Assembly: GCA_963772945.1 (NCBI GenBank)
Contig: CAVYZJ010000005.1
Location: forward strand, 674,596 to 714,595
Origin: an uncultured Thermoleophilaceae bacterium
GTDB taxonomy: Bacteria; Actinomycetota; Thermoleophilia; Solirubrobacterales; Thermoleophilaceae
Length of the DNA: 40,000 nt
Reading direction: 5' to 3'
Positions within the stretch are counted from its first letter, which is position 1. Each line of letters opens with the position of its first letter. A model generated the notes under the pieces. It searched no databases. It saw only the letters and a program-made list of their open reading frames with translations, and was not told where the DNA came from. Below are positions 4,706 through 24,075 of this stretch, piece by piece. Made by a program: the position numbers and the translations under genes.

Positions 4706-4724
4706 CCGCGGACCGTGCGGCAAC

Positions 4725-5588: not shown

Positions 5589-5615
5589 AGCGTGGGCCCG
5601 CGGCCCTGCGCGCGC

Positions 5616-6128
5616 CTAGCCCTCGACGCCGCCGGCGAACGGGTGCCGCGCCTCGGCCACCCCTTCGATCACGGTGCTCGCGGCGGGCTCGTTGGCCATC
5701 GCGCGCGCGATCGACTCCTTGGTGGCCTCGTAGTTGTAGTCGAAGATCTTCTTGTCGTCCTCGGCCAGCCAGTGGATGAAGACGCCCACGATGATGCAGA
5801 GGTCGTCGGCATCCGACTCGGAGATCACCCCGTCGCGCACCGAGTCGACGACGGCCCGTGCCACCGCCGCCTGGGCGGGCCCGAACATCTGCCCGACCTG
5901 CTTCTCACCCCTGATCGTCACCTTGTTCGCCATGAGCGTGTCGGGCTTCGCGGGCAGGTTGGGCGCGACCACGGCCAGCAGGTTCGTGTGGCCCTCCTTC
6001 TGGTTCAGGAGTGCAGCGGCGAACGCTTGGCCGACCGGCCCGTCCTTGGATCCGACCAATAGATCGATGTGAGCGACCTCGTTGCCGTCGCCGACAAGGG
6101 ACTCCCCGACCGACATGGACATGGCCAT
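5616..6128 (-). CDS. fae: Formaldehyde-activating enzyme (5,6,7,8-tetrahydromethanopterin hydro-lyase)
   Basis: The 170-aa protein has characteristic Fae segments [30 protein letters not shown] and [11 protein letters not shown] strong SD AAGGGAGGGG (minus strand, 6135-6144) lies 6 nt upstream of ATG 6128. Confidence 0.92.
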
Positions 6129-6239
6129 CTAATTCCCCTCCCTTGGTGGTTCTCTCAGATTCGCGCGAAGGCTATCGCTACGGAGGCGGCCGGCGCAGGA
6201 CGGCTCGCCGGTCCCGCGTGGATATGCTCCGGCGCGCGG
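6129..6239. promoter_or_regulatory. Divergent control region between the fae operon (leftward) and the fhcBADC operon (rightward)
   Basis: This 111-nt non-coding gap is the largest within nt 1300-24000. Both flanking operons must initiate here. It contains the fae SD. Only weak -10-like hexamers are present (e.g. TAGCCT on the minus strand, TATGCT on the plus strand), so no promoter position is asserted. Confidence 0.4.
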
Positions 6240-7475: not shown

Positions 7476-7481
7476 CGCGGC

Positions 7482-10030: not shown

Positions 10031-10842
10031 CGCTGACTCTGACGCTGCGCGAGCCGCCGGCCGTGCCGCTCGAGACGGAGGGCCTCACCCCGGACCGGCT
10101 GGCCGGCCTTCGCCGGGGGGAGATCGAGGCTATCGGTGTCTGGCACGGCAACCGCCGGGCGCAGCTGACCGACTTCTTCGCGGTGTCGGGCGACGGCGAC
10201 GAGGAGCTGCGGGTTGAGGGCGACCTGCGGCGCGTGAAGTTCCTCGGGGCGGGCATGACCGCCGGCCGGCTCACGGTGGCGGGCGATGCGGGGATGCACA
10301 CCGGCTCGGAGATGCGCGGAGGCGAGCTGGTGGTCGAGGGTGACGTCGGCGACTTCGCGGGCACGGCCATGCGTGATGGCCGGCTCGTGGTGCGAGGCTC
10401 CACCGGCCACCACCTCGGCGGGGCGCATCCGGGCGAGCGCACCGGGATGCGTGGCGGCGAGATCCTCGTGCACGGGGACGCCGGCGACCAGGTGGGAGCA
10501 GGCCTCCGGCGCGGGCTGATCGCCGTCGCGGGACGCGTCGGCGAGGGCGCCGGGCTGCGCATGCTGGCGGGCACGATCGTCGCTCTGGGGGAGCTGGGCG
10601 CCCGGCCGGGCGCGGCCATGCGGCGAGGCACGATCGTGGCGATGTCGCAGGCCACGCTGCTGCCCACCTTCGGCTTCGCGTGCACGTACCGGCCGCCCTT
10701 CCTCCGGCTGTACCTTCGCCACCTGCGCGAGCTGGGCCTGCCTCTGACCGACGAGCAGATTGGGGGCCGTTACGCGCGCTGGTGCGGAGACGGACTCGAG
10801 CTCCGGCGGGGTGAGATCCTGATTCTCGAGGCCGGCGAGTGA
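10027..10842 (+). CDS. fhcC: Formyltransferase/hydrolase complex subunit C (FwdC homologue, beta-helix repeats)
   Basis: Gly-rich beta-helix repeats are present (MRGGELVVEGDVGDFAG, MRDGRLVVRGSTG, MRGGEILVHGDAGDQVG, LRRGLIAVAG). ATG 10027 overlaps the fhcD stop (ATGA). The long track ORF 9181..10842 is this frame read through fhcD out of frame. Confidence 0.9.
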   Translation: MTLTLTLREPPAVPLETEGLTPDRLAGLRRGEIEAIGVWHGNRRAQLTDFFAVSGDGDEELRVEGDLRRVKFLGAGMTAGRLTVAGDAGMHTGSEMRGGELVVEGDVGDFAGTAMRDGRLVVRGSTGHHLGGAHPGERTGMRGGEILVHGDAGDQVGAGLRRGLIAVAGRVGEGAGLRMLAGTIVALGELGARPGAAMRRGTIVAMSQATLLPTFGFACTYRPPFLRLYLRHLRELGLPLTDEQIGGRYARWCGDGLELRRGEILILEAGE

Positions 10843-12923
10843 GCACCCTCGCGGCCCGTCTCGAGCGTGCCGCCTACGGTCTCGAGTAGCGGGCGGGCCT
10901 TCAGGAGCATCTCCTCCAGCTCGGCCTCGGGGTCCGACGCCGCGACGATCGCCCCGCCCGCGCCGATGGCGAGGCCGTCCGGGGAAGCCACGAGGGTGCG
11001 GATCACGACGCTGAAGTCGGCGGTGCCGTTGACGGCGAGGAACCCCAGGGCGCCGGAGTAGACGCCGCGGGGACGGCCCTCGATCCGGTCGATGATCTCC
11101 AGCGTGCGCAGCTTCGGCGCGCCCGTCATCGAGCCGGGGGGGAAGGCCGCGCGCACGGCGTCAATCGCGTCCGACCCCTCGCGCAGGCGGCCGCGGACGA
11201 CGGTGACCATCTGGTGGACCGTCGCGTACGGCTCCACGACCATCAGGGCGGGGACTTCCACCGTGCCGAGTGATGAGACCCGGCCGAGGTCGTTGCGCAC
11301 CAGGTCGGCAATCATCAGGTTCTCGGCGCGTGTCTTCTTGTCGCGGCGGAGCTCGGCCGCCCGGCAGGCGTCCTCGAACGGCTCAGCCACCCGGGCCGCG
11401 GTCCCCTTCATGGGCCGCGACTCCACGACATGGTGGCGGTCGACACACAGAAAGCGCTCCGGCGAGGAGCTGAGCACCGAGACCTCGCCGAGCCGCAGCA
11501 GCGCAGCGAAAGGTGCCGGGTTGCGCGTTCTCAATGCACGGTAGGCCGCCCAGGGGTCGAACCTTTCCTCGCTGCGCAGCTCGGTAGTCAGGCAGACCTC
11601 GTAGGTTTCGCCCTCGACTATCTCGCTCCGACAGGCGGCGATGTTGGCCAGGTACGCCTCCGGGGACTCACGGGGCTCGAAGCGCAGCGTGCCGGGCGGC
11701 GCCGGGGGCGGTGGCAGCGGCGGCGGCTCGCGCGCGATCGCGCGCAGTCGCTCCTCGGTCGCGGCCAGCCAAGTGTCGGCCGCCTCCGCGCCGGCGGAGT
11801 CCGCGAGCGCGAGCAGATAGACGTGACGCTCGCCGTGGTCAAAGGCGATCAGCCGGTCGCAGAACACGAGCGTCGCGTCCGGCATTGGCGAGACGTGCTC
11901 CGGCCGGCCGCCGCACTCGGCCTTGAGCTCGTATCCGAGGTAGCCGGCGAAGCCGCAGGTGAAGTCGAAGGGAAGCTCCGGAGCGTCGGCGCGCAGGCGC
12001 GCGAGCTCGTCTCGGCAATAGTCGAGCACGCTCGCCGTTCGCGCCTCCTGGCCCGACTCGCGGTCGATGACTAGGGTCCGCTCCTCGACGTCGTAGCGCA
12101 CCACCTGGCCGAGCGGGCCGTCGGGCCCGCCGATGAACGAGAAGCGGCCCACGCCCGGATCCGGGCGCGCGCTGTCGAGCCAGACCGCGTGCTCGCGGCT
12201 GGTGTAGAGCGCGCCGAACACCGCCTCGGGCTCGCACCAGCTCTCCAGCCGGCGATGGTGGATGCGCGCACCTACGGGCACGGCGGGCCGTGCCCGGTGC
12301 TGACGCTTGGCGGGCCGTCGCGCGGCAGGCGCGCTCCGGACGCGGGTGAGGTCGCGGAAGTTCTCCAGCAGGCGGCGGCCATGCCGGGTGCTCACCGACT
12401 CGGGATGGAACTGCACGCCGAACAGGGGGCGCGCGCGGTGTTCCAGGCCCATGATCACCCCGTCGGGCGTCCAGGCGCTGACCCTCAGCTCCGCGGGCAC
12501 AGCACCGACCACCAGCGAGTGGTAGCGCACGGCGAGAAAGCCCTGCGGGATCCCGACGAAGAGCGAGCCGCCGTCATGGTGGATCGGGCTCAGGCGGCCG
12601 TGCATGACCTCCTCGGCGTGTTCGACCGTGCCGCCGGTTACGTGGGCGAGAGCCTGATGGCCCAGACAGACGCCGAGCACCGGCACGTCGGCGCGGCAGA
12701 GCGCGTCCAGGGAGACTCCGACGTCGCGCGCGTGCTCCGGCCGGCCCGGGCCCGGTGAGATGACCACGTTGTCGGCGCCCAGGCCGGCGAGCTCTTCCCA
12801 CGGAAGCTCGTCGTTGCGCACGACCACGGGCTCGCTGTCGTTGACCTCCCCGAGCAGATGGAAGAGGTTGAATGTGTACGAGTCGTAGTTGTCGATCAGA
12901 AGCGTGCGCATCCCGGCCCACAT
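10770..12923 (-). CDS. pabB: Fused aminodeoxychorismate synthase PabA-PabB (glutamine amidotransferase + chorismate-binding component)
   Basis: The N-terminal GATase has LLIDNYDSYTFNL, the GVCLGHQAL catalytic Cys and FGVQFHPES. The C-terminal chorismate-utilising domain has SSSPERFL, PMKGTAAR, GSMTGAPK and RGVYSGALGF. The start is ATG 12923 (MWAGMRTLL) or ATG 12911. The upstream 338 codons of the track ORF are antisense read-through. Confidence 0.85.
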   Translation of the reverse strand: MWAGMRTLLIDNYDSYTFNLFHLLGEVNDSEPVVVRNDELPWEELAGLGADNVVISPGPGRPEHARDVGVSLDALCRADVPVLGVCLGHQALAHVTGGTVEHAEEVMHGRLSPIHHDGGSLFVGIPQGFLAVRYHSLVVGAVPAELRVSAWTPDGVIMGLEHRARPLFGVQFHPESVSTRHGRRLLENFRDLTRVRSAPAARRPAKRQHRARPAVPVGARIHHRRLESWCEPEAVFGALYTSREHAVWLDSARPDPGVGRFSFIGGPDGPLGQVVRYDVEERTLVIDRESGQEARTASVLDYCRDELARLRADAPELPFDFTCGFAGYLGYELKAECGGRPEHVSPMPDATLVFCDRLIAFDHGERHVYLLALADSAGAEAADTWLAATEERLRAIAREPPPLPPPPAPPGTLRFEPRESPEAYLANIAACRSEIVEGETYEVCLTTELRSEERFDPWAAYRALRTRNPAPFAALLRLGEVSVLSSSPERFLCVDRHHVVESRPMKGTAARVAEPFEDACRAAELRRDKKTRAENLMIADLVRNDLGRVSSLGTVEVPALMVVEPYATVHQMVTVVRGRLREGSDAIDAVRAAFPPGSMTGAPKLRTLEIIDRIEGRPRGVYSGALGFLAVNGTADFSVVIRTLVASPDGLAIGAGGAIVAASDPEAELEEMLLKARPLLETVGGTLETGREGAHSPASRIRISPRRSSSPSPHQRA

Positions 12924-12944
12924 TGTCGCGCCCCCAGGACGTCG

Positions 12945-13832
12945 GTGAGCAGCCGGCGGCTGCGGGTCGCGGTTTTGGGCTCCACCGGCGGCTGGCATGC
13001 CGCTCGCCTCGAACGGGCGCTGACCGCGCGCGGCCACGAGTGCGCGTTCGCGCCCGTCACCCGAATGGTGGGCCGCATCGGAAGCGGACTCGGCGTGCGC
13101 TCGCGCGAGCTGGCCCTCGACGGCTGCGACATCGTGCTCGTACGCGGCATCCCGCGCGGGTCGCTCGAGCAGGTCGTCTTCCGGGTGGATGTGCTCCATG
13201 CGCTCGCGGCCGCCGGCGTGCGGGCGGTCAACAACGCGGACGCGATCGAGCGGACCGTCGACAAGTTTCTCGCCTCGAGCCTGCTGGCAAACGCCGGCCT
13301 GCCCACCCCGCGCACGATCGTCTGCGAGCGGGCCGCCGAAGCGCTGGAGGCGTACTCCGAGCTCGGCGGCGACGTGATCGTCAAGCCGCTGTTCGGCTCG
13401 ATGGGATCCGGCATCGTTCGCATCGAGCATCCCGACGTGGCGGAGCGGGTCTTTCGAGCGCTGGAGCTCGAGCGGGCCGTCTACTACCTCCAGGAGACCC
13501 TGCCGCACGCGGGCCGCGACGTTCGAGCGCTGGTTGTCGGCGATCGCGTGGTGGCCGCCGTCGAGCGGAGCGGCGAAGGCTGGCGCACGAACCTCGCGCG
13601 CGGCGGGCGGGCGAGCCCGGTGCGGCTTGACGCCCGACAGGAGCGCCTGTGTGTGCCGGCGGCGGCTGCCCTCGGTGCCGATTACGCCGGCGTCGACCTC
13701 CTTCGGACACCTGACGGGCGCGACTACGTGCTCGAGGTGAACGGCATCCCCGGCTGGCAGGGCGTGGAGCGTGCGACGGGGGTTGACGTGGCAGCCGCGC
13801 TTGCACAGCACCTGGAGACGGTCACCGGCTGA
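12945..13832 (+). CDS. mptN: RimK-type ATP-grasp ligase, tetrahydromethanopterin:alpha-L-glutamate ligase-like
   Basis: The RimK-family layout includes DIVLVRGIP, DKFLASSLLANAGLPTP, VIVKPLFGSMGSG, GEGWRTNLARGG, YAGVDLL and LEVNGIPGWQG. I prefer in-frame GTG 12945. The track start 12858 would overlap pabAB head-on. Confidence 0.8.
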   Translation: MSSRRLRVAVLGSTGGWHAARLERALTARGHECAFAPVTRMVGRIGSGLGVRSRELALDGCDIVLVRGIPRGSLEQVVFRVDVLHALAAAGVRAVNNADAIERTVDKFLASSLLANAGLPTPRTIVCERAAEALEAYSELGGDVIVKPLFGSMGSGIVRIEHPDVAERVFRALELERAVYYLQETLPHAGRDVRALVVGDRVVAAVERSGEGWRTNLARGGRASPVRLDARQERLCVPAAAALGADYAGVDLLRTPDGRDYVLEVNGIPGWQGVERATGVDVAAALAQHLETVTG

Positions 13833-14541
13833 GGTCCGTCGCCGCGATCGCCCCGCTGTGCAGGGCGGTGGCGACGAGCGCGCCGGCCGCGCCCACCTCG
13901 GCCAAGGCGTGCAGGTCCGAGGGGTCGCGAACGCCACCGCCGGCCAGCAGATCCAGCTCGGGAAAGCGGGCGCAGAGCTCGCCCATCAGCGCGAGGTCGG
14001 GGCCCGAGCCGGTCCCCACGCGCGCCAGGTCGAGAACGATCACCTCCCTCAGGCCCGAGTGGGCCAGTTGCGCTAGCGCCTCGGCCGCTCCGAGCCGAGC
14101 CAGTTCGGGGTCGGGCGAGAGGACGCGGCCCGCCCGGAGGTCGAGGCTGAGCACGAGCGGGGCATCGGGAAGCACGGCCCGCAGCCGAGCGAGAGCAGCT
14201 TGGCCCGGAAGCGTCTCGGTGCCGATCACGACCCGCGCCGCGCCCTGCTCGAGCAGCCGCCGAACCGCCGCGACCTCCGTGACGCCGGCATCGACCATCA
14301 CCCGCGCCTCGCGCGCCAGGTCGGCGACGAGCGCACGCTGCCCCGATCCGCCCGCGATCGCGTCCAGATCGGCGACGTAGAGCTCATCGAGTCCGAGGCT
14401 TTCGCGGACGGCGAGCGTGACCTGGACGGGGTGGGAGCCGGCACACAGCCTGCTGCGCAGAGGGCGATAGCGTTCGCGCTCCCCGCGCACGGCATGCACG
14501 GCGGCTCCGCTCTTGAGATCGATGACCGGGATCACTCGCAC
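13822..14541 (-). CDS. HisA/HisF-family (beta/alpha)8 barrel protein of the H4MPT-linked gene set; function unknown
   Basis: The HisA-like pattern is VIPVIDLKSGAAVHAVRG, ELYVADLDAIAGG, VVIGTETL, IVLDLARVGTGSGPD and LLAGGGVRD. GTG 14541 is preceded by GAGG 8 nt upstream (alternative GTG 14535). The upstream part of the 585-aa track ORF is antisense to the next gene. Confidence 0.75.
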   Translation of the reverse strand: MRVIPVIDLKSGAAVHAVRGERERYRPLRSRLCAGSHPVQVTLAVRESLGLDELYVADLDAIAGGSGQRALVADLAREARVMVDAGVTEVAAVRRLLEQGAARVVIGTETLPGQAALARLRAVLPDAPLVLSLDLRAGRVLSPDPELARLGAAEALAQLAHSGLREVIVLDLARVGTGSGPDLALMGELCARFPELDLLAGGGVRDPSDLHALAEVGAAGALVATALHSGAIAATDLSR

Positions 14542-14574
14542 TGTGGTCGCCTCGCTGCCCGGAGAGGCTCGCGC

Positions 14575-15591
14575 ATGGGCGGCGTGATCGGCCTCGACGT
14601 TGGGGGTGCCAACACGAAGGCGGTGTGGCGGAACGGGCGCGAGCGGCGCGCCGTCTCGCGACCGTTCGAGGTCTGGCGCGACCGTGAGGCACTTTCCGCC
14701 GTGCTCCGCGAGGTCGTGGCGGCAGTGGCGCCGGAGTCCGTGGACGCTGTGGCACTGACCACCACCGCTGAGCTCTCGGATGCCTTCCGCACCAAGCGGG
14801 AGGGGGTGGAGTTCGTGCTCGACGCCGCGGCTGCGGCGTTGGGCGACCGGCCGCTGCTGGCCTTCACGACCGCCGGCGAGCTGGTCTCCCTCGCGGAGGC
14901 GCGGCAGCGCGCGCCCGAGGTGGCGGCCGCCAACTGGTTGGCGGCCGCTCGCGCGATCGCCGGGGTGTACCCGGATGCCCTGATGGTCGACGTCGGCAGC
15001 ACCACCACCGACGTCGTTCCGATCGCGGGCGGCCAGGTCGCCGCCTACGGCCGCACCGACCTCGATCGCCTGCTGGCCGGCGAGCTCGTCTACACAGGCG
15101 CGCTTCGCACCAACCTCGCGGCGATCGCGCCCCGGGTGCCCGTGCGCGGCCGCGCGTGCGCGGTCGCCTCGGAGCTGTTCGCGATCAGTGCGGACGTGCA
15201 CCTGATACTCGGCCACCTCACGCCCGGCGCGTACACGTGCGCCACCCCGGACGGGCGGCCGGCGACGGTGGAGTTCGCGCGCGAGCGGGTGGCTCGGCTG
15301 GTGTGCGCCGATGCCGACCAGATTGCCGCGGAGGAGATCGATGCGATCGCCACGTTCGTGCACGGCGAGCAGGTGCACCAGATCGAGGAGGCGGCCGGCC
15401 GAGTGAGGGAGCGATTCGACGGCGACCCGTCTGTCGTCCCGCTGGGCGCTGGAGCGTTTCTCGCGCGCGAGGCTGCCGAGCGGCTGGGGCTTACGACCGT
15501 GGAGCTGCCGTGGAGCGCGGCCGAGCGGGACGCGGCGCCCGCCGCCGCGCTCGCCGAACTTCTGGCCGGGCGGCTCCACCCGCAGTGCTGA
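14575..15591 (+). CDS. Hydantoinase_A-like 'H4MPT-linked C1 transfer pathway protein', MfnF-like (methanofuran/methylofuran assembly)
   Basis: ASKHA/hydantoinase-like motifs are VIGLDVGGANTK and MVDVGSTTTDVVPI. SD GGAGAGG lies 7 nt upstream of ATG 14575. Equating this family with MfnF is from memory and should be verified. Confidence 0.7.
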   Translation: MGGVIGLDVGGANTKAVWRNGRERRAVSRPFEVWRDREALSAVLREVVAAVAPESVDAVALTTTAELSDAFRTKREGVEFVLDAAAAALGDRPLLAFTTAGELVSLAEARQRAPEVAAANWLAAARAIAGVYPDALMVDVGSTTTDVVPIAGGQVAAYGRTDLDRLLAGELVYTGALRTNLAAIAPRVPVRGRACAVASELFAISADVHLILGHLTPGAYTCATPDGRPATVEFARERVARLVCADADQIAAEEIDAIATFVHGEQVHQIEEAAGRVRERFDGDPSVVPLGAGAFLAREAAERLGLTTVELPWSAAERDAAPAAALAELLAGRLHPQC

Positions 15592-16281: not shown

Positions 16282-16992
16282 TCAGGACGGTGCCGCGCAT
16301 AGCTCGCGCAGCCGCCCGATCCGCTCGCCGTCGAGAGGCGCGGTGCGCCGCCCGTCGCGACAGGCCGCCGAGCGCACGCCTGCTATGTCGGCGCCCGTGG
16401 CCCGCACCGCGCTCAGGTCCTCCGCGCGCAGTGCTCCGGCGAGCGCCATCTCCAGGCCCGCGGCGTGCGCATCGGCCACCAGCGTCGTGAGTGCGTCGGG
16501 GTCGAGCCACTCGAACAGCCCGCGGCCGTCCTTGAGCGCGGTGTCGAGCAGGCAGCCGCCTACGCCCGCACGGCGCGCCGCCGCGACGAGGGCCCCCGGC
16601 GGCAAAGGCCGGCCGGGCACGCGCTCGGCGTCGGCGTAGGCAGCGGCGATCACGTCCGCCCCGCCGTCGAGGGTGTTCCGAACCGCGGAGAGCACCGCCA
16701 CGGCCCTGTCCTCGGTCGACGTTCCCCACAGCCCGACCTTCACGTAGGCGGCGCCGGACCGCACGGCCCCCAGCGCGGCCAGCGCGGCGGTGCCGGGCAG
16801 GTCGGGCAGGTCGCCAATGGCGGCGCTCACCGGACGCTGGGGCGGCACCACCTCCCGGACACGCTCGATCACGTCCGGCGCCGGGGCACCCAGCGAACCC
16901 TCGGCCGGGTTCTTCACGTCGACGATGTCGACACCTCCCTCGACGGCCACGGACGCCTCGTGGGCGTCGGTGACGCTCACTAGCAACCTCAT
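16282..16992 (-). CDS. mfnB: (5-formylfuran-3-yl)methyl phosphate synthase (MfnB, DUF556 family)
   Basis: MRLLVSV...GGVDIVDVKNPAEGSLGA contains the Schiff-base Lys motif. Later segments are YVKVGL and LLDTALKDG, as in MfnB. ATG 16992 overlaps the mptG stop (ATGA). The track ORF was trimmed from 17133. Confidence 0.8.
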   Translation of the reverse strand: MRLLVSVTDAHEASVAVEGGVDIVDVKNPAEGSLGAPAPDVIERVREVVPPQRPVSAAIGDLPDLPGTAALAALGAVRSGAAYVKVGLWGTSTEDRAVAVLSAVRNTLDGGADVIAAAYADAERVPGRPLPPGALVAAARRAGVGGCLLDTALKDGRGLFEWLDPDALTTLVADAHAAGLEMALAGALRAEDLSAVRATGADIAGVRSAACRDGRRTAPLDGERIGRLRELCAAPS

Positions 16993-17930
16993 CCGGTCTT
17001 CACGCGCGCGCCGCGGTTGTCGAAGCGCACGAGCTCCACCGACGCGCCACCTGCCAGCTCGGCGTCCATTCGGCGGACGAGCTCGCGCCCCGCCTGCTCG
17101 TCTCCAACGATCCCGTAGACAGCGGGCCCCCACGAGCTCTGTCCCGCACCGGCCGCCCCGAGGCGGAGCAGCGCATCGACCAGAGCTCCGGCGCGTGGAT
17201 GGAACATGCCGCGCTGAACCGAGGAGAACGACTCGCCGACCAGCCGCTGGACACGCGTGAGCGCCGTGCCGAACTCGGTCAGGTCACGCTCGGCGAGCCC
17301 GGGCAGCAACGAGGTCAGGACGAGCTGCGAGATGAGCGCAGCGCGGTCGGCGTCCGGACGCAGCCCCGCGAAAGCCTCCTCCTCCGCACGTCCCGAGAGT
17401 CCCGGCTCGGCGGTCGGGATCGCGAGCACGCAGCGCCAGTCGTCGGGCATCGCGTGGCGGGCCAGGAGCGGGGCCGCCTGCTCGACGCCGGGCCGCACGC
17501 CGCCCTCCACCACCATTCCGCCGTGCACGAAGGTCCACAGGCCCACCGCCGAGCGCGCCCCGCGCCCGGCGGCGCGGGCGAGCGCCCGCGGGTCGGGCGT
17601 CTGCCCGGCCAATCCGGCCAGGGCGGCGGTGACGGCAAGGGCGAGCTTGGTACCCGAGCCGAGGCCGACATGCCCCGGGATCGCTTCGAGCACGCGGATC
17701 CGCGCGCCGCCCGCGAGAGCGAGCGACTCCCGGCAGCGCTTGGCGACGGCGAGCGCGCGCTCGGCGTCGGCGCCCTCCGCGGTGACGTCCTCGGCAGCGC
17801 TTGCCTCCACTACGGCAGCAGGACGGCTGATGGCCACGCCCAGCCCGCCGAAGCGGCGCCCGCCACTCCCGGCGACGTCGAGCATGCCCATGTGCAGGCG
17901 CGCGGGCGCCTCGACGCGGACCGTCGTCAT
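16989..17930 (-). CDS. mptG: Beta-ribofuranosylaminobenzene 5'-phosphate (beta-RFAP) synthase, GHMP-kinase fold
   Basis: The N-terminus RVEAPARLHMGMLD and the GHMP motif PGHVGLGSGTKLALAV match MptG, which commits pABA + PRPP to methanopterin. ATG 17930 overlaps the upstream stop (ATGA). Confidence 0.85.
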   Translation of the reverse strand: MTTVRVEAPARLHMGMLDVAGSGGRRFGGLGVAISRPAAVVEASAAEDVTAEGADAERALAVAKRCRESLALAGGARIRVLEAIPGHVGLGSGTKLALAVTAALAGLAGQTPDPRALARAAGRGARSAVGLWTFVHGGMVVEGGVRPGVEQAAPLLARHAMPDDWRCVLAIPTAEPGLSGRAEEEAFAGLRPDADRAALISQLVLTSLLPGLAERDLTEFGTALTRVQRLVGESFSSVQRGMFHPRAGALVDALLRLGAAGAGQSSWGPAVYGIVGDEQAGRELVRRMDAELAGGASVELVRFDNRGARVKTG

Positions 17931-18508
17931 TCGCTTCCCAATGCGACGCGCACGTGCCTCCGCACGAGCTCCATCGCCTCGAGCTCGCGCGGCCCGGCCG
18001 TCTTGTCGACCAGCACCTGGAGGCGCTCCAGGTCCGCGTGGATCTCGGCAGGCGGGAGGCGGCGCACGCGCGACGCGATGATCGATGCCTCGAGCACCGC
18101 GTGACGCGCCCGGTTGAACCCGAGGAACTCACGCCCGGTCCCCTGCCCGACGACGCGCGTGGTCACCCGCGCGCGCGGCCCACTCGCTTCGATCTCCTCG
18201 ACCTCGACCTCGCGCCAGGAACAGGCGTCCGCCAACACCGCGCCGTCGATCGCCGCTGCGGACCGCGTGGGCGGGCGCGGATCGCCGAGCGCCGCCTGCG
18301 TGAAGAGCAGGATGTCGTCGGTGAGGTGGACCACCGCCGCCCCTGTCGCCTGCAGGTTGCGCAGCGTCCGCGTCGGGCGGTAGGGCTTGATGACGATGAT
18401 CTCGTCGCCCCACTCCACCCCCATCGCGGCGCAGTTGACCGTGCCGTCCGGGTTGATGGTCGTGGTTACCGTCTCGACGATCGCGGCCCCGGGCGGGCGC
18501 GCGCTCAT
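17927..18508 (-). CDS. DUF447-family protein (split-barrel, flavin-reductase-like fold); conserved unknown of H4MPT clusters
   Basis: IVETVTTTINPDGTVNCAAMGV and VIKPYRPTRTLRNL match the DUF447 pattern as I recall it from archaea and methylotrophs. ATG 18508 overlaps the mch stop (ATGA). Confidence 0.65.
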   Translation of the reverse strand: MSARPPGAAIVETVTTTINPDGTVNCAAMGVEWGDEIIVIKPYRPTRTLRNLQATGAAVVHLTDDILLFTQAALGDPRPPTRSAAAIDGAVLADACSWREVEVEEIEASGPRARVTTRVVGQGTGREFLGFNRARHAVLEASIIASRVRRLPPAEIHADLERLQVLVDKTAGPRELEAMELVRRHVRVALGSE

Positions 18509-19455
18509 CCCCTGAAGGACCGCTCGAGGACGCCGACGTCAACGGCCCCGGCGTGAAAGCTGCGCCCGCTCGACACGCTCGTCAGGCGCACCTCGGCCGG
18601 GCTGAAGAGCAGCGGGTCGATCTCGTAGAAGTCGCCGCCGGCTTGCTCGAGTACGCGCGCGAAGGGTTCGCCATGGTCCCGCGAGGCGGACGCGGGCAGG
18701 CGCGGCACGATCGACTCGAGCTCCTCGTCGGGGGCATCGACGCTGAGCTCCACCTGGCCGCCGTAGAGGACGGCGTCGTTGGTGCGACCGATCGCCTCGC
18801 CGTCGTCTCGGGCGACCGGCGGGAGCGGACAGCTCCCGAAACCGCTCACCACTCGCCCGACGTCGAAGTCGAGCTCGTGGAGCTTGTGCAGCGCGGTCTC
18901 GACCACGCGCGCGGCGATCTGAACCCCGCCGGCCAGGCTGGCGGTCGGCGCGAACAGCAGCGTCAGGTCCCCTGCCGTGACACCGGCGCGCTCCGCCACA
19001 TACTCGGCGAGCGGTTCCGGTGGCGGCTCGCGCGCCTCGAGGCACAGCGTCGCGCTCTGCGCCCGCTCGTCGACGTCGAGATCGTCGTAGAGGTCCTCGG
19101 CCCGGATCAAGGCGCGGCCCGGCCCGCTGGCCATCGCGAAGTAGTCGTCCCGGTCCAACTTCCAGCCCGCGTACTGAGAGGCCAGACAGGCAAGCGCCGG
19201 CCGATCGGTCACAACCGTGACCCCGGGAAGCCAGCGGCCCTCGAGCACCAACGGGACGAACGACACCCAGCCCATGCCACCCATGCAGATCTGGGCGAAG
19301 CGGCGGCCGGCCTCGAAGCCACCGGCGACCGCGCTGCCGCAGTCGATCAGGCGCGTGCCGTTCGGGAGCGTCGTGACCTCCACACGCAGGGCGTCGGCCT
19401 CGGCGGCCAGGCGGTCGGCGAGCTCATGTGCGCGATCGTTTAGCGAGGGGGTCAC
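18505..19455 (-). CDS. mch: Methenyltetrahydromethanopterin cyclohydrolase
   Basis: The 316-aa protein has Mch-typical segments ACLASQYAGW, ASGPGRAL and GRTNDAVLYGG. GTG 19455 overlaps the upstream stop (GTGA). Confidence 0.9.
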   Translation of the reverse strand: MTPSLNDRAHELADRLAAEADALRVEVTTLPNGTRLIDCGSAVAGGFEAGRRFAQICMGGMGWVSFVPLVLEGRWLPGVTVVTDRPALACLASQYAGWKLDRDDYFAMASGPGRALIRAEDLYDDLDVDERAQSATLCLEAREPPPEPLAEYVAERAGVTAGDLTLLFAPTASLAGGVQIAARVVETALHKLHELDFDVGRVVSGFGSCPLPPVARDDGEAIGRTNDAVLYGGQVELSVDAPDEELESIVPRLPASASRDHGEPFARVLEQAGGDFYEIDPLLFSPAEVRLTSVSSGRSFHAGAVDVGVLERSFRG

Positions 19456-20573
19456 GATGCGGCCTGAGCATAAGCCTCTCGCTCACCAAGCTCGGTGCGC
19501 AGCGCGGAGGCGCGCTCCTCGAGGTCGGCGAGCACGGCGTGCGGGGAGCCCTGGGTCGAGACGAGCGTGCAGATCGGATGCCCGGCCGCGATCCGCTCGT
19601 GCGGGTGAGGCACGTCGCGAATGCCGCGCGCCGGCCAGCCGCGGGTATCCCCGACGCGCAGGTTACGGGTGGCGAACAGGATCGCCTTGCCGGCCGCCCG
19701 GCGCGGTGCCGGAGCGGGAGCGACCGGGGGCAGACGCCCGGCGCAACCCTCGAGGTGGGCTTCGAAGACGCCCACCCGGTGCGCCGCCTCGACGGGTTCA
19801 AGTGAACCCGTGGGCCGGGGGTTGACCTCGACGACCCAGGCTCGCTCGCCGTCCCACACGAAGTCCACGCCGAACAGCCCCCGGAATCCGAACTGGACAG
19901 CCAGGTGCGCGCAGATCGTCAGCGCGGCGGCGGCCAGCTCGCCTCGCTGCTTCTCCTCGAGCCGCGGCGGCACGAGGTTGCCGCACCACGCGTAGCCGCG
20001 CGCGCCGAGCCCGCGGTGCCCGATCAGCTGCTCGCTCACGCCGAGCACGACGGCCGAGCGGCCGTCGGCGACCGCAGCGGCCGAGCAGGCCAGCCCGGAG
20101 ATCCGCTCCTGCACCACGACATCCCCGTCGAGCGCCCCGCCGCGCCACTGCCGGATGCCCCGCCCGCCGCCGCCGCGCACCGGCTTGCGCAGCCAGCGGC
20201 GCGAGGGCTCCGCGAGCCGGGGAGCGTCGCTGGCGGCGAATGTCTGCGGATACGCGAGGCCGGCTGCCCGCAGGGAGGCGCCCAGGACAGCCGGGTCACG
20301 CACGCGCTCGAGCGTCTCGGGCTGACACCCGAGCAGGGTCCGGCCGGACGCGAGCCGGGCCACGAGCCCCGGCTGGTTCTCCAGGCCCGCGCCGTAGATC
20401 ACGCTCGGCGCGGAGATCTCCTCCGCGGCGTCCACCAACGTCGCCATCCCGCCCCGCCCGCCCAGATCGCGCAGCACGGACACGCTCGGGCAGAGCCGCT
20501 GCAGGTCGAAATCCCCGAAGCGGTCGAGCGCCACCACCTCGTGCCCGGCACTCATCGCCAGCTGGGCGAGCAT
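19452..20573 (-). CDS. ATP-grasp ligase of the H4MPT/methanofuran gene set (COG2232-type, MfnD-like candidate)
   Basis: The ATP-grasp core has VVQERISG, GNLVPP and FGVDFVWDGERAWVVEVNPRP. The coordinates use the first ATG (20573). The conserved N-terminus (LEPILLVAVSAR) continues in frame upstream with no ATG/GTG/TTG, so see the finding on a possible CTG start at 20615. Confidence 0.75.
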   Translation of the reverse strand: MLAQLAMSAGHEVVALDRFGDFDLQRLCPSVSVLRDLGGRGGMATLVDAAEEISAPSVIYGAGLENQPGLVARLASGRTLLGCQPETLERVRDPAVLGASLRAAGLAYPQTFAASDAPRLAEPSRRWLRKPVRGGGGRGIRQWRGGALDGDVVVQERISGLACSAAAVADGRSAVVLGVSEQLIGHRGLGARGYAWCGNLVPPRLEEKQRGELAAAALTICAHLAVQFGFRGLFGVDFVWDGERAWVVEVNPRPTGSLEPVEAAHRVGVFEAHLEGCAGRLPPVAPAPAPRRAAGKAILFATRNLRVGDTRGWPARGIRDVPHPHERIAAGHPICTLVSTQGSPHAVLADLEERASALRTELGEREAYAQAAS

Positions 20574-20611: not shown

Positions 20612-21493
20612 TCAGAGCAGGCCCTCCAGCAGCGCCACGAAGAGCACGGCGGTCACCACATCGGCCGTGGTACCCGGGTTGAGCGCGTTGCCGTCGCTGC
20701 GCAGGAAGGCGTCGAATCCGGCCAGAGCGGTCCGGCCCGAGGCGTTGCGCACGCCGCCGGCGCCGAGCACCTCCCTCGCCCCCGCCGCCACTCGACCGGC
20801 CGCGGCGGCGCCGCGCTTGCGAGCGATCAGCGTGTCCGGCACGGCGGCGAGGAGGCGCAGCGCCAGCTCGACCGTGGCGTCGCGAGGGCGCAACCCATCG
20901 CCCAGCGCATCGCCGAGGGCGGGCAGCCCGAGCTCGAACGTCACCGCGTAATCGGTGAGGTACTCGCCGGCGATCGTGTCGCGCTGCGCGGCGGCCGCCA
21001 TGGCCTCGCGCAGCGTCACCCGTGGTTCCTCACGCACGTCATGCTCGACGGGCTCGTCGAGCCCGCCCGGCCCGGCGAGGCGGATCGCCGCGTAGGCGCC
21101 TCGCGCGTCGTCGACGGTGAGCGCCCGCAGCACGTCGCCGAGGCGCTTACGGAGGGTGCCCCCGATCAAAGCCGCGCGCGCGAGCGGCGCCAGGAGCAGC
21201 GCGATCCCGAGGTTGGTGTTGGCGCCGGCGGCGTCACGCGAGGCACGTACGGCGGCCAGCACCGTCTCGCCGATCGCTCGCTCGCCCGCCCGGCCCAGCT
21301 CGGGACCGAGCGCGATCCCGCTGCGCAGCATGTCCTCGTAGGAGGTGTCGCCGAAGTCGTGGCTGGGCGTGATGTTGCCCGGCTTTTCGGCGCTGGCCTC
21401 CAGCACACAGGCCAGCTGCGCAGCCTGCACGACGACGTCGGGGGCAAGACGAGCGGCGCCGTCCGCCGTCTGCTTGACCGGCATTTGCGGCAT
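20612..21493 (-). CDS. Triphosphoribosyl-dephospho-CoA synthase (CitG/MdcB)-like protein of the H4MPT-linked gene set
   Basis: ASAEKPGNITP, GANTNLGIALLL and NPGTTADVV are CitG-family segments. The start is ATG 21493 (MPQMPVK) or ATG 21484. The upstream 50 codons of the track ORF run antisense into the SDR gene. Confidence 0.75.
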   Translation of the reverse strand: MPQMPVKQTADGAARLAPDVVVQAAQLACVLEASAEKPGNITPSHDFGDTSYEDMLRSGIALGPELGRAGERAIGETVLAAVRASRDAAGANTNLGIALLLAPLARAALIGGTLRKRLGDVLRALTVDDARGAYAAIRLAGPGGLDEPVEHDVREEPRVTLREAMAAAAQRDTIAGEYLTDYAVTFELGLPALGDALGDGLRPRDATVELALRLLAAVPDTLIARKRGAAAAGRVAAGAREVLGAGGVRNASGRTALAGFDAFLRSDGNALNPGTTADVVTAVLFVALLEGLL

Positions 21494-21505
21494 CGTATAG
21501 CTGAG

Positions 21506-22291
21506 ATGTCGGACCAGGTGGCGCAGCCGGGCGGTCGCCGGCTCGACGGGGTGCGGGCCGTGGTAACGGGCTCCAGCAGCGGCATCGGCGCCGCCATCGC
21601 CGAGGCTTTCGGCGCCGCGGGCGCGACGGTGCTCGTGACACACCGCGACAGCTCGGAGGGCGCCTCTGCGGTCGCCGAGCGGATCACCGGCGCCGGTGGC
21701 CGCGCCCTGGTCGCCCAGGCGGACCTGGGCACTCGCGACGGATGTGAGGCGCTGGTCGGGGAGGCGCAGGAACGGCTCGGCGGGCTAGACGTCTGGGTCA
21801 ACAACGCGGGCGCAGACGTGCTGACCGGCGAGGCAGCCGGCTGGGACTGGGAGCGCAAGCTCGACCTCCTGGTCGCCGTCGACCTCAAGGGAACCGTCGC
21901 GTGCTCGCGTGCCGCCGGCGCCGTCATGCGCGAGCAGGCCGGCGGCGGAGTCATCGTGAACATGAGCTGGGACCACGTGACCACCGGTATGGCCGGCGAG
22001 AACCCGGAGCTGTTCAACGCCGTGAAGGGCGGCGTGCTCGCCTACAGCAAGAGCCTCGCACGCAGCCTGGCTCCCCGGGTCCGTGTGAACGTGCTGTGCC
22101 CGGGCTGGATCGAGACCGGCTTCGCGCAGGAAGCCGACAGCGAGTTCCGTCGCTCGGTCACGGAGTCGACGCCCCTTGCCCGCTGGGGCCGTCCGGAGGA
22201 CGTCGCCGCGACCGCGCTCTGGCTGGCGTCGCCCGAGGCGGCGTTCGTCACCGGTCAGGCCGTCAACATCAACGGCGGCGTTGTGATGTAG
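21506..22291 (+). CDS. Short-chain dehydrogenase/reductase (classical SDR fold) with a non-canonical active-site motif
   Basis: Cofactor loop AVVTGSSSGIG, NNAG, IVNMS and PGWIETGF are present. At the expected YxxxK position the sequence reads FNAVK. ATG 21506 (alternative GTG 21518) was trimmed from the track start 21041. Confidence 0.8.
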   Translation: MSDQVAQPGGRRLDGVRAVVTGSSSGIGAAIAEAFGAAGATVLVTHRDSSEGASAVAERITGAGGRALVAQADLGTRDGCEALVGEAQERLGGLDVWVNNAGADVLTGEAAGWDWERKLDLLVAVDLKGTVACSRAAGAVMREQAGGGVIVNMSWDHVTTGMAGENPELFNAVKGGVLAYSKSLARSLAPRVRVNVLCPGWIETGFAQEADSEFRRSVTESTPLARWGRPEDVAATALWLASPEAAFVTGQAVNINGGVVM

Positions 22292-22315: not shown

Positions 22316-22681
22316 ATGGAGACGACCGCAAAGACCAAGCCGTACACCGACGAGGAGGTCGAGGCCAAGATCAGCGAGCACGGCCTCGACGGCTGGTACC
22401 TCGACGGCGGGTGGCTCCGGCGCAAGTACAACACCGACGGCTGGCCGACGACGCTGATGCTCGTCAACGCCATCGGCTACCTGTCCGAGGCGGCCTACCA
22501 TCACCCGGACCTGGCGGTGACCTGGGGCAAGGTGTGGGTAAAGCTGCAGACGCACTCGAGCGGCGGCATCACCGACAAGGATTTCGCCCTCGCGCGCGAG
22601 ATCGAGGATCACGTGCTGTGGCGGCCTGAGTCCGACAGCGCGCTCGAGGGATCGCCGAACAAGTTCGTCGTGAGCAAGTAG
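22316..22681 (+). CDS. Pterin-4a-carbinolamine dehydratase (PCD/DCoH family)
   Basis: The 121-aa protein carries the PCD signature EAAYHHPDLAVTWGKVWVKLQTHS. A strong SD AAGGAGGG (22300-22307) lies 8 nt upstream of the ATG. Confidence 0.85.
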   Translation: METTAKTKPYTDEEVEAKISEHGLDGWYLDGGWLRRKYNTDGWPTTLMLVNAIGYLSEAAYHHPDLAVTWGKVWVKLQTHSSGGITDKDFALAREIEDHVLWRPESDSALEGSPNKFVVSK

Positions 22682-22701: not shown

Positions 22702-24075
22702 GTGGCCGAGCGGCTCCTGTTCGTAACCGGCAAGCTCGCCGCGGCGGCGCTCCGCGACACGCTGGACCGCACGGAGCTTCCGTTCGACTACGACGTCGCG
22801 GTCATGAAGATCACGGTCGCCGCGCTGATGACCACAACCTGGATCGCGCGCTTCCTCGAGCCTCCCGACGCGGTCACCAAGATCATGATCCCCGGCCTCT
22901 GCGAGGGAGAGACCGACGTGCTGGCGGAGCGCTTCGGAGTCCCGGTCGAGAAGGGCCCGGCGGACCTCAAGCGGCTGCCGGCCTGGTTCGGGCAGGCCGA
23001 CGCGCGCGCCAGCTACGGGCCGCGCGACATCCGCGTGTTCGCGGAGATCAACCACGTTCCGAGGCTGAGCCGCGACCGCATCCTCGAGCTCGCGGGCTAC
23101 TACCGCGACTCCGGCGCCGATGTGATCGACCTGGGCCTGTCGCTCGAGGGCAGCTGGCTCGAGGAGGGCCCGGCGGTGATCGCCGAGCTGCGCGAGCGCG
23201 GCTTCACCCTCAGCATCGACACGATGGACACCGAGGAGATTCTGATGGCCGACGAGGCGGGCGTCGACTACGTCCTCAGCCTCAACGGCTCCAACCGCGA
23301 ACTCGCCGAGCGACTGCGCGCGATCCCGGTGCTCATCCCCGACACGCCCGACGACCTGGACAGCCTCGACGCCACGGTCGCCCACCTCGAGGGCCTCGGC
23401 AAGCCCTACCTCGTCGACCCGATCATCGAGCCGATAGGCACGGGCTTCGCGGCCAGCCTCGGGCGCTACCTGGGGGTGCGCCGGCGCCATCCCGACGCGG
23501 AGATGTTCATGGGGATCGGCAACCTCACCGAGCTGACCGAGGCGGACAGCACGGGGGTGACGGCGACGCTCATCGGCTTCTGCCAGGAGCTAGGCATCCG
23601 CAATGTGCTCACCACCGAGGTCATCGAGTGGGCGCACGGTGCCGTGCGGGAGGCGGTGCTGGCGGCGCAGCTCATGTACTTCGCGCAGGAGCAAGGAACC
23701 CCGCCCAAGCACGTCGACGGGCGGTTGCTGACCGTGAAGGACGAGGACCTCCGCCCTTACGCGGAGTCCGAGCTGCGCGAGCTGCACGCGCAGGTGACCG
23801 ACCCGAACTTCCGGATCTTCGCCGACAGCGAGTGGATCTACGTCTTCAACGCCGAGCTGTTCGTCAAGGGCACCGACTTCAACGAGATCTTCGACCAGCT
23901 CGGGGTGGATGAGCCGACGCACGCCTTCTATCTCGGCAAGGAGCTGATGAAGGCCACTATCGCGCGCGCCCTGCGCAAGAACTATCGCCAGGAATCGCCC
24001 CTCGACTGGGGCTACATGACGTTCGAGGAGCCGCGCCGAGAGCGCGTCCGGCTGACCACGCGGCTCAAGGAGTAG
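22702..24075 (+). CDS. Dihydropteroate synthase-like protein with N-terminal extra domain (H4MPT biosynthesis, MptH-like)
   Basis: The pterin-binding barrel has DVIDLGL, SIDT and GIGNLTELTEADSTGV. It follows an N-terminal about 100-aa domain (LLFVTGKLA...) typical of methylotroph/archaeal DHPS-related proteins. The start is GTG. Confidence 0.8.
   Translation: MAERLLFVTGKLAAAALRDTLDRTELPFDYDVAVMKITVAALMTTTWIARFLEPPDAVTKIMIPGLCEGETDVLAERFGVPVEKGPADLKRLPAWFGQADARASYGPRDIRVFAEINHVPRLSRDRILELAGYYRDSGADVIDLGLSLEGSWLEEGPAVIAELRERGFTLSIDTMDTEEILMADEAGVDYVLSLNGSNRELAERLRAIPVLIPDTPDDLDSLDATVAHLEGLGKPYLVDPIIEPIGTGFAASLGRYLGVRRRHPDAEMFMGIGNLTELTEADSTGVTATLIGFCQELGIRNVLTTEVIEWAHGAVREAVLAAQLMYFAQEQGTPPKHVDGRLLTVKDEDLRPYAESELRELHAQVTDPNFRIFADSEWIYVFNAELFVKGTDFNEIFDQLGVDEPTHAFYLGKELMKATIARALRKNYRQESPLDWGYMTFEEPRRERVRLTTRLKE

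Follow-up and report, generated by a model that had tools for sequence, protein, structure and literature searches.

A Tyr-less SDR clade as candidate dihydromethanopterin reductase in bacteria with H4MPT genes

The gene at positions 21506 to 22291 of the 40,000-nucleotide stretch of Thermoleophilaceae DNA analysed here (the window) encodes an SDR that is not a one-off, but a member of a well-separated SDR clade. We refer to it as the WD clade, a name defined in this analysis; no curated family exists for it. Judged by sequence comparison, the SDRs of this clade are probably NAD(P)H-dependent dihydromethanopterin reductases, a further non-homologous form of this enzyme that would use Asp and not Tyr. 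Support for this candidate role comes from comparative genomics, namely co-occurrence with mch, exclusivity with DmrA and DmrB, and gene position. A sequence-only reading of the same DNA had put the SDR forward as candidate for the missing dihydromethanopterin reductase. This proposal appears supported: a catalytic Tyr restored by alignment, a Dmr gene elsewhere in the genome, and a lack of association of the SDR subtype with H4MPT genes were each looked for as refutations, and none was found.

Formaldehyde oxidation linked to H4MPT lies at the heart of methylotrophy and occurs widely among bacteria of soil and water. For the last step of H4MPT synthesis, an enzyme is known only from Methylobacterium-type Alphaproteobacteria (DmrA), Beta- and Gammaproteobacteria (DmrB), and archaea (DmrX). 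DmrA is described as a non-homologous substitute in Methylobacterium (PMC5020050; PMC6193120), and according to Chistoserdova (2016, PMC5020050) no Afp/DmrB gene can be recognised in Planctomycetes. Searches of the accessible literature returned no paper linking any SDR to methanopterin synthesis. The SDR gene and its surroundings in the window are as follows:

21506 to 22291, plus strand: Tyr-less SDR of the WD clade, candidate NAD(P)H-dependent dihydromethanopterin reductase (261 aa; Pfam, alignments, AF2)
22316 to 22681, plus strand: pterin-4a-carbinolamine dehydratase, PCD (PF01329, E 5.8e-24; intact E-x3-HHP-x5-W-x9-H-x8-D)
22702 to 24075, plus strand: DHPS-like methanopterin-biosynthesis protein (TIGR00284, E 3.6e-47; DUF6513; PterinBD-DUF4346)
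20612 to 21493, minus strand: CitG-like (triphosphoribosyl-transferase-like) gene of the H4MPT island, divergent from the SDR gene (profile matches)
19452 to 20573, minus strand: ATP-grasp (profile match)
18505 to 19455, minus strand: Mch (profile match)
17927 to 18508, minus strand: DUF447/orfY (profile match)
16989 to 17930, minus strand: MptG, beta-RFAP synthase (profile match)
16282 to 17133, minus strand: MfnB (profile match)
1269 to 15591, no single strand assigned: remaining H4MPT/methanofuran C1 island with FolE2/MptA-type GTP cyclohydrolase, GlnS-like, DUF1464, MtdB, Fae, FhcA, FhcD, fused PabAB, and hydantoinase-like orf1

The two profile matches downstream bear out the earlier assignment of a PCD followed by a DHPS-like gene on the same strand. 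Gaps are short, with 24 nt between the SDR stop and the PCD gene and 20 nt between the latter and the DHPS-like gene. Leftward, the operon runs in the order CitG-like, ATP-grasp, mch, DUF447, mptG, mfnB. The longest ORF of the CitG-like gene reaches position 21643, and its Pfam match starts at residue 73.

Downstream of the clade SDR, the DHPS-like gene is the partner that is conserved. Among 36 clade loci drawn from Actinomycetota, Planctomycetota, Gemmatimonadota, Rokubacteria, and Acidobacteriota, it lies directly 3' of the SDR gene in 19 (the Acidobacteriota locus has the PCD gene only). The same adjacency is seen in 6 of 13 further clade loci, and in 7 of 10 cases without it mch is found elsewhere in the genome. 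Clade members also occur as HPPK-SDR fusions (P0155 and P0163) and as an SDR-DUF6513 fusion (P0210), and HPPK adjoins the clade SDR in one locus (L030). Two further apparent fusions, HPPK-SDR (P0157) and Fae-SDR (P0135), look frame-shifted or merged, with Arg-rich junk linker and truncated domains, and are left uncounted.

The protein is a classical SDR, as had been read from the letters, and has the Rossmann fold of about 250 aa, the N-terminal TGxxxGxG, and the NNAG of this type. It matches adh_short_C2 (PF13561, E 1.9e-51) and adh_short (PF00106, E 7e-36), and its translation displays TGSSSGIG at residues 21-28, NNAG at 98-101, NMS at 152-154, and PGWIETGF at 199-206. AF2 predicts a compact SDR fold with high confidence (pLDDT 94.6), which Foldseek aligns to leading FabG-type SDRs with TM 0.80-0.86. 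NADP(H) may be the preferred cofactor, judging from Arg47 behind strand beta-2 (THRDS); 40 of 77 clade members have Arg here. FabG, the automatic label, is the best match in sequence and structure (35-39% identity, TM about 0.85). However, the protein stays below every NCBIfam FabG cut-off (173.4 bits vs 296; 168.4 bits vs 297.75), has neither the catalytic Tyr nor the Asn, and resides among H4MPT genes. A genuine FabG with S…YAASK motif is encoded in a separate fab operon of this genome (contig C5:116803-117546). Low scores, broken tetrad, and this second gene exclude plain FabG identity.

The residues at issue, with codon positions checked for the last four entries, are:

21566 to 21589, plus strand: dinucleotide-binding motif T21-G-S-S-S-G-I-G28 (translation)
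21815 to 21817, plus strand: Asp104 in the clade motif A-G-A-D-V-L-T-G (Asp in 76 of 77 clade members)
21881 to 21883, plus strand: Asp126 at the site of the SDR tetrad Asn (aligned to FabG Asn; Asp in 76 of 77)
21965 to 21976, plus strand: Ser154 at the tetrad Ser position (21965-21967) with the inserted clade signature W155-D156-H157 (21968-21976; clade alignment)
22013 to 22027, plus strand: F170-N-A-V-K174, Phe for the catalytic Tyr (22013-22015) with Lys retained (22025-22027; FabG and clade alignments)

Aligned by HMMER with four crystal structures of FabG, L-F170-N-A-V-K174 falls on n-Y-x-A-x-K, and Asp126 ('VDLKG') on the tetrad Asn ('NLTG/NLKS'). The suspected change of YxxxK to FxxxK thus holds, and no Tyr is restored. 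Instead of the catalytic tetrad Asn-Ser-Tyr-Lys the protein has D126-S154-F170-K174, and the clade consensus is D-G-F-K; across the clade, the classical N-S-Y-K has become D-[G/S]-F-K. The stretch from Ser to the Tyr position is 2-3 residues longer than in the four FabG structures. Multiple alignments put three extra residues, W155-D156-H157, right behind Ser154, with a Ser154-to-Phe170 spacing of 16 residues vs 13 in FabG; the longer spacing and the nearby WDH had both been noticed before. The sole other Tyr in the vicinity is Y180 ('AYSK'), and, in agreement with the earlier reading, no other YxxxK motif is found there. Of the 120 nearest homologues in the database (83-95% identical), every one has Phe at the Tyr position, so F170 is no sequencing error. 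Together with the FabG-structure alignments, these homologues exclude an alignment or sequencing artefact.

Within 77 clade members, position 170 is Phe in 69, Tyr in 6, His in 1, and Leu in 1. Given this variation, catalysis does not depend on a fixed residue here. Position 154 is likewise variable (Gly 60, Ser 12, Ala 4, Thr 1), as is position 157 (Gln 55, His 11). On the other hand, W155, G161, and K174 are invariant (77/77), and D104, D126, and D156 (74/77 for the latter) are at least 96% conserved. Candidates for the compensating acid or base that the first reading had called for may be named from the alignment: D156 in the WD motif, which hardly varies, along with D126 and D104.

A single branch (SH-aLRT 99) parts the WD clade from classical SDRs in our tree. 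Its signature comprises a [G/S]-W-D-[Q/H] insertion after strand beta-5, A-G-[AV]-D-x-L-T-G, Asp at the tetrad Asn position, [F]-x3-K, and P-G-W-I-x-T, and all of these features are present in the SDR of the window (P0001), which falls within the clade in the tree.

The association of this SDR subtype with H4MPT genes extends to other genomes and phyla. Scored against the clade profile, 151 Planctomycetota genomes fall into two groups, one reaching at least 316 bits and the other no more than 231 bits. The 13 high-scoring genomes are exactly the 13 that carry mch, and the clade is found in 0 of the 138 others. In those of the 13 on single long contigs, SDR and mch lie 0.2-2 Mb or more apart. 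For Planctomycetota, with distances often of hundreds of kb, mere hitch-hiking within an island is excluded as an explanation of the co-occurrence. Among relatives of the present genome, which are non-independent samples, the clade SDR is found in 12 of 13 genomes with mch and 0 of 28 without. In the one mch-positive relative without SDR match, mch sits at a contig end. In three genomes with the clade SDR, one from Anaerolineales and two from gut Thermoguttaceae, no mch, DHPS-like gene, or FolA was found; the clade is therefore not strictly bound to H4MPT.

The expectation that no DmrA-, DmrB- or DmrX-type gene would accompany the SDR held genome-wide. Searches with PF00186 and a DmrA-like protein returned neither a DHFR/DmrA nor a FolA in the 75% complete genome (3.7 Mb, 10 contigs), and TIGR02699 and TIGR02700 gave only partial matches of 20-22 bits for AfpA/DmrB and DmrX. 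At this completeness, a Dmr gene could be unassembled. In 13 Pseudomonadota with mch, the three types partition without overlap or remainder: 2 carry the clade SDR, 6 a full-length DmrB/AfpA (one matching PDB 3WIS/4MWG with E 3e-50), and 5 a DmrA-like protein of 131-138 aa. No DmrA-like gene was found in 23 clade-bearing genomes searched (positive control 4.6e-85), and no DmrB in 18 of these 23.

Gene position points in the same direction. The order dmrB, DHPS-like, DUF447 on one strand is seen in 6 of 6 DmrB-type Proteobacteria. The clade SDR holds this position of DmrB, directly upstream of the DHPS-like gene, across five phyla. The five DmrA-like loci have none of the queried H4MPT genes within 5 kb on either side, and therefore offer no positional argument for DmrA.

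Based on this dataset, we hypothesize that the clade SDR supplies the dihydropterin-reducing step of H4MPT synthesis in bacteria without DmrA and DmrB/AfpA. The Rossmann site, which is intact, would take up NAD(P)H, probably NADPH. A pterin ring would stack over the nicotinamide, possibly packed against Trp155 and Trp201, both of them invariant; it would belong to 7,8-dihydromethanopterin or to a late dihydropterin precursor from the DHPS-like enzyme. Hydride would be delivered to C6 of the pterin, and N5 would be protonated via a carboxylate (Asp156 of the W-D motif, Asp126, or Asp104), directly or through water, as in DHFR with Asp27. The classical Tyr-OH would be unused, and Lys174 would keep its usual role with the nicotinamide ribose. 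Which substrate and cofactor the enzyme would prefer, and what each residue would do, are proposals drawn from comparison; candidate substrates are 7,8-H2MPT, a biosynthetic dihydropterin precursor, and a quinonoid form.

The quinonoid form deserves consideration, as the intact PCD gene 24 nt downstream could indicate such a substrate. DHPR is itself a member of the SDR superfamily. An analogue of it could, together with PCD, recycle oxidised H4MPT (4a-hydroxy to quinonoid H2MPT to H4MPT) rather than carry out the biosynthetic 7,8-dihydro reduction. The PCD gene lies between SDR and DHPS-like gene in the Actinomycetota, Gemmatimonadota, and Rokubacteria loci, as well as at one, but only one, planctomycete locus, and it directly follows the SDR gene in Acidobacteriota. 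Moreover, no aromatic amino-acid hydroxylase that might account for PCD was found in this genome. Yet most planctomycete loci have SDR and DHPS-like gene with no PCD in between, DHPR uses YxxxK, and neither so clean an exclusion of DmrA and DmrB nor the position of DmrB would be expected of a recycling enzyme. A role in recycling instead of biosynthesis appears rather unlikely, and the two roles are not mutually exclusive. The HPPK fusions, in turn, could indicate an earlier step of the pathway. With the DHPS-like adjacency they place the SDR in the pterin/RFAP part, and we know of no enzyme for several steps of H4MPT biosynthesis in the White/Rasche pathway schemes. The SDR might, for example, reduce the ribofuranosyl ring in the product of the DHPS-like enzyme to the ribityl chain, or act near HPPK. 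Every H4MPT producer needs such a step, however, and searches revealed no clade member in any of the 11 mch-positive Pseudomonadota with DmrB or a DmrA-like protein. For a universal reduction, the universally conserved DUF447 (FMN-binding-like fold) beside mptG and the DHPS-like gene would be the better candidate. We hence regard another reductive step as unlikely.

FolA is absent from this genome, from 9 of the 13 clade-bearing planctomycetes, and from the three clade-bearing genomes without mch, and in the Anaerolineales genome the clade SDR sits directly after canonical FolP. This would fit a general dihydrofolate or dihydropteroate reductase that replaces FolA, with the link to H4MPT being incidental. 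But 77 of the 151 planctomycetes have neither FolA nor the clade, FolA is present in 4 of 13 clade-bearing vs 61 of 138 other planctomycetes, and two clade-bearing Gammaproteobacteria as well as those four planctomycetes carry a normal FolA. By this control the pattern follows mch and not loss of DHFR, which excludes tracking of FolA loss and leaves FolA replacement very unlikely; an SDR acting on both dihydrofolate and dihydromethanopterin is possible. Finally, three of four tetrad positions are changed, and the protein could be non-catalytic, for instance a structural or regulatory subunit such as a nucleotide-sensing partner of the DHPS-like enzyme. Against this stand the strong conservation across phyla of the Gly-rich dinucleotide motif, Lys174, and W155 and D156 at the active-site end of strand beta-5, the compact and confident model, and a pattern of replacement that resembles a remodelled active site and not decay. 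A dead SDR thus seems highly improbable.

The proposed dihydromethanopterin reductase has no homology to DmrA (DHFR fold) or DmrB/DmrX (FMN flavoprotein fold). With DmrA of Methylorubrum extorquens AM1, an NADPH-dependent enzyme of truncated DHFR fold, it would share reaction and nicotinamide cofactor. Both are lineage-restricted stand-ins for one pathway step and mutually exclusive in genomes with mch, whereas their folds (DHFR vs Rossmann SDR) are unrelated, and the clade SDR usually lies at the DHPS-like gene, with the DmrA-like genes of five genomes away from the queried H4MPT genes. With DmrB/AfpA of Burkholderia xenovorans (PDB 3WIS/4MWG) it shares gene position, upstream of DHPS-like gene and DUF447 in 6 of 6 cases, and the phyletic distributions are complementary. 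DmrB/AfpA is a non-homologous FMN flavoprotein, whereas the clade SDR is proposed to use NAD(P)H directly.

SDR folds that reduce dihydropterins with NAD(P)H are represented by trypanosomatid PTR1, bacterial FolM (dihydromonapterin/dihydrofolate reductase), and DHPR/QDPR; PTR1 has Asp in place of the catalytic Ser. These enzymes keep Y-x3-K, whereas the WD clade has F-x3-K, Asp at the Asn position, and the W-D insertion, and the protein described here has no Tyr at the motif that would place it with PTR1/FolM. No PTR1, FolM, or DHPR entry is found among 39 PDB sequence matches at E<=1e-30, the best 50 Foldseek matches, or the best 25 NCBIfam families. Neighbours in sequence and structure are of FabG type, and the clade seems to be derived independently of the PTR1, FolM, and DHPR subfamilies.

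A wider proposal may be formulated, for which we see the chances as evenly balanced. WD-clade SDRs would be an independently evolved dihydromethanopterin reductase, perhaps a dihydrofolate reductase in a few anaerobes, in which the inserted Trp-Asp pair and the Asp at the Asn site replace the Ser/Tyr proton relay. The gap in Planctomycetes would thereby be closed, and the enzyme would also reach into Actinomycetota, Gemmatimonadota, Rokubacteria, Acidobacteriota, and some Gammaproteobacteria. A specific, easily expressed candidate of 26-28 kDa with a clean phyletic signature makes the gap in Planctomycetes directly testable. If true, the WD-clade SDR would represent a new catalytic solution, Asp-based and Tyr-less, in a very well studied superfamily, and a marker of H4MPT capacity in MAGs. 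Annotation would improve as well, as thousands of metagenomic copies now carry the FabG label. In the genome studied here the clade SDR is present as a single copy, with 351 bits vs 172 bits for the next match.

The Thermoleophilaceae (Actinomycetota) source genome (71% G+C) is represented by an assembly of 10 contigs and 3.7 Mb that is 75% complete. A complete-set tetrahydromethanopterin (H4MPT)/methanofuran C1 island spans positions 1269–24075 of the window, with the following genes:

1269–24075 (within the island): FolE2/MptA-type GTP cyclohydrolase, MtdB, Fae, FhcA, FhcD, fused PabAB, hydantoinase-like orf1, MfnB, MptG, DUF447/orfY, Mch, an ATP-grasp protein and a CitG-like protein
21506–22291, + strand: the SDR
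22316–22681, + strand: pterin-4a-carbinolamine dehydratase (PCD), after the SDR
22702–24075, + strand: DHPS-like protein, after PCD
Beyond the DHPS-like end of the island: a cupredoxin-like gene, an XoxF-type PQQ dehydrogenase and pqq genes

The succession of SDR, PCD and DHPS-like gene on one strand is as the sequence-only reading had described it, and the 261-amino-acid SDR displays the motifs named there (TGSSSGIG, NNAG, NMS and PGWIETGF). HMMER alignments to four FabG crystal structures place F170 at the position of the catalytic Tyr, K174 at the Lys, S154 at the Ser and D126 at the tetrad Asn. The proposed exchange of Tyr for Phe with retention of Lys (FxxxK) is thus borne out, all of the 120 nearest database homologues (83–95% identity) having Phe at this site; the lack of the Tyr is a real feature of the protein. 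The three-residue longer spacing and the nearby WDH correspond to one insertion, W155-D156-H157, directly after the Ser; the codon positions of these sites were confirmed. As the tetrad Asn is also replaced, the loss of catalytic residues goes beyond what had been stated. The 120 homologues derive mainly from soil metagenomes and are usually labelled automatically as "3-oxoacyl-ACP reductase", and none of the best 25 listed NCBIfam models reached its curated cut-off for the SDR. Assignment of this single-copy gene as the FabG of the source genome was rejected: the real FabG (S…YAASK) lies elsewhere on the contig, within a fabD-fabH-fabG-fabF operon.

Across 1.8 billion representative proteins (exhaustive HMMER search) and 185,579 scanned species genomes, all relatives above about 40% identity carry the same signature, whereas matches below this value have the S…Y-x3-K pattern of ordinary SDRs and lack the insertion. 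Among 77 sequences of this W-D clade, the Tyr position is occupied by F (69), Y (6), H (1) or L (1), the Ser position by G (60), S (12), A (4) or T (1), and the Asn position by D in 76. K174, W155 and G161 are invariant; D156 is found in 74, D104 in 76 and W201 in 75 of the 77. A single branch (SH-aLRT 99) parts the clade from 49 classical SDRs in a quick maximum-likelihood tree. The AlphaFold2 model (pLDDT 94.6) displays a normal SDR fold, in which the W-D-H insertion lies at the end of strand beta-5 and runs into a short helix. Its Foldseek neighbours are FabG-type enzymes, and neither PTR1 nor DHPR is among the best 50. By homology the SDR is none of DmrA, DmrB/DmrX, PTR1/FolM/DHPR or FabG; it is a FabG-like SDR that has been remodelled independently.

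Several related MAGs have an SDR gene that is broken over different frames or shortened (relatives G017:C8:443077-443860 and G024:C21:80407-80823; loci L016, L050 and L076, from "MFD" MAGs), in some cases along with mch or the DHPS-like gene. Assembly indel errors seem more likely here than real pseudogenes.

An association of this SDR subtype with H4MPT genes in other genomes, named by the sequence-only reading as a check, was found with mch as marker. Among 41 relatives (SDR threshold E ≤ 1e-40), the SDR is present in 12 and Mch in 13, and none of the 28 Mch-negative genomes has the SDR; in the sole Mch-positive relative lacking it, mch is located at a contig end and the expected place of the SDR is off the contig. 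The profile score of the clade is bimodal in 151 Planctomycetota genomes (at least 90% complete): 13 score 316–360 bits, the next best 231 bits, and these 13, all with the W-D motif, are exactly the 13 Mch-positive genomes. The distance between SDR and mch amounts to 0.2–3 Mb in several complete planctomycete chromosomes, so the co-occurrence is not due to linkage alone. The species-genome scan yielded 36 clade loci from Actinomycetota, Planctomycetota (Pirellulales, Planctomycetaceae, Isosphaeraceae, Gemmataceae, Lacipirellulaceae), Gemmatimonadota, Rokubacteria, Acidobacteriota, Chloroflexota and two Gammaproteobacteria. The DHPS-like gene directly follows the SDR in 19 of them, with or without PCD between, often with pabAB, DUF447 and mptG next; one of the 19, the Acidobacteriota locus, has PCD only. 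In 7 of 10 non-adjacent cases tested, mch is found elsewhere in the genome.

The distribution of the known dihydromethanopterin reductases is complementary. Among 301 Pseudomonadota, 13 are Mch-positive: two carry the clade SDR, six others a full-length AfpA/DmrB homologue (83–94 bits; for one, the match to structures 3WIS/4MWG, the "putative dihydromethanopterin reductase (AfpA)" of B. xenovorans, has E 3e-50), and the remaining five one truncated DHFR homologue each (131–138 amino acids, mutually orthologous), with no overlap and no genome unassigned. The truncated proteins match the published description of DmrA (15.8 kDa, without the two C-terminal strands; PMC6193120). Full-length AfpA was not found in the 13 clade-positive planctomycetes and five other genomes, nor a DmrA-like gene in 23 clade-positive genomes including the source genome (positive control 4.6e-85). 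The whole-genome search for Dmr genes suggested earlier thus yielded neither a DmrA-like gene nor DmrX in the source genome (75% complete), the sole DmrX matches being of 20–22 bits to a CoaBC-sized ORF.

In each of the six DmrB-type genomes, dmrB, the DHPS-like gene and DUF447 follow one another on a single strand, tens of bases apart; clade-type genomes have the arrangement SDR, (PCD), DHPS-like, (pabAB), DUF447, mptG. Hence the SDR holds the place taken elsewhere by DmrB, the activity of which has been demonstrated biochemically and genetically (PMC6193120). The DmrA-like genes differ from both in lying apart from the queried H4MPT-island genes, none of which was found within 5 kb on either side in the five Pseudomonadota loci (L140–L144); their products are highly conserved (MIDVRCICAIGQRGQLGLNGHLPWEG…).

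Reduction of the C6=N5 bond of a 7,8-dihydropterin requires hydride transfer to C6 and a proton to N5, for which DHFR uses a carboxylate and water, and PTR1 an Asp plus Tyr. In the SDR, both an acid and an aromatic pterin platform could come from the invariant W-D pair at the site of the catalytic Ser, the Asp in place of the tetrad Asn, and D104. Genuine binding of NAD(P)H is favoured by the Rossmann motif together with the acidic D73 and K174, and the presence of Arg47 rather than an Asp after strand beta-2 suggests NADPH as cofactor. A dead enzyme is one rival reading. Quinonoid-pterin recycling together with PCD is another: the PCD motif is intact (E-x3-HHP-x5-W-x9-H-x8-D), and an aromatic hydroxylase was not found in the source genome (75% complete). 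The SDR might also catalyze another reductive step of side-chain assembly, or act as a general substitute for FolA. A FolA-type DHFR was not found in the source genome (75% complete), which has a folP-folB-folK operon (contig C5:110445-112462), and FolA is missing from 86 of the 151 Planctomycetota; 4 of 13 clade-positive and 61 of 138 clade-negative genomes have it, so that the clade tracks mch and not DHFR loss. The clear-cut mutual exclusion of the clade with DmrA and DmrB and the common gene position favour the last reduction to H4MPT over all four readings.

Together with the co-occurrence with mch, these data support the SDR as a candidate dihydromethanopterin reductase, as had been proposed. 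No paper tying an SDR to methanopterin synthesis was found in the literature searched; that the reductase of Planctomycetes is unrecognised has been noted explicitly (Chistoserdova, 2016; PMC5020050).

Further links to pterin metabolism exist. HPPK (6-hydroxymethyl-dihydropterin pyrophosphokinase) is fused to the SDR in two independent representative proteins (P0155 and P0163; metagenomic, planctomycete-type) and abuts it in a Gemmataceae locus (L030:9503-10708), and in a third protein (P0210) the SDR is fused with DUF6513, a domain of the DHPS-like protein. In three clade-positive genomes, one of Anaerolineales and two of goat-gut Thermoguttaceae with divergent GWDG/GWDA motifs, mch, the DHPS-like gene and FolA were not found. 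In the Anaerolineales MAG (DAOUBX010000047.1, L031:5830-7634), the SDR is located 18 nt 3′ of a canonical FolP (PF00809, E 2.8e-77), with a DNA photolyase gene downstream. The SDR could be an SDR-type dihydrofolate reductase, which fits a dihydropterin-ring reductase serving folate there; this arrangement weakens a strict restriction to H4MPT and supports the proposed chemistry.

Within the island, only 12 nt (21494–21505, cgtatagctgag) separate the starts of the divergent CitG-like gene (21493, − strand) and the SDR (21506, + strand), which implies leaderless transcripts for both genes or promoters inside the adjoining coding regions. The fused PabA-PabB (10770–13937, − strand; 1055 amino acids), with an N-terminal extension of about 340 amino acids without domain match, may serve specifically to provide MptG with pABA. 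An ORF of 468 amino acids upstream of fhcA (6069–7475, + strand), without Pfam match, may encode an unrecognised Fhc subunit; its counterparts adjoin fhcA in other islands (tblastn: L014, L025, L076; 38–61% identity).
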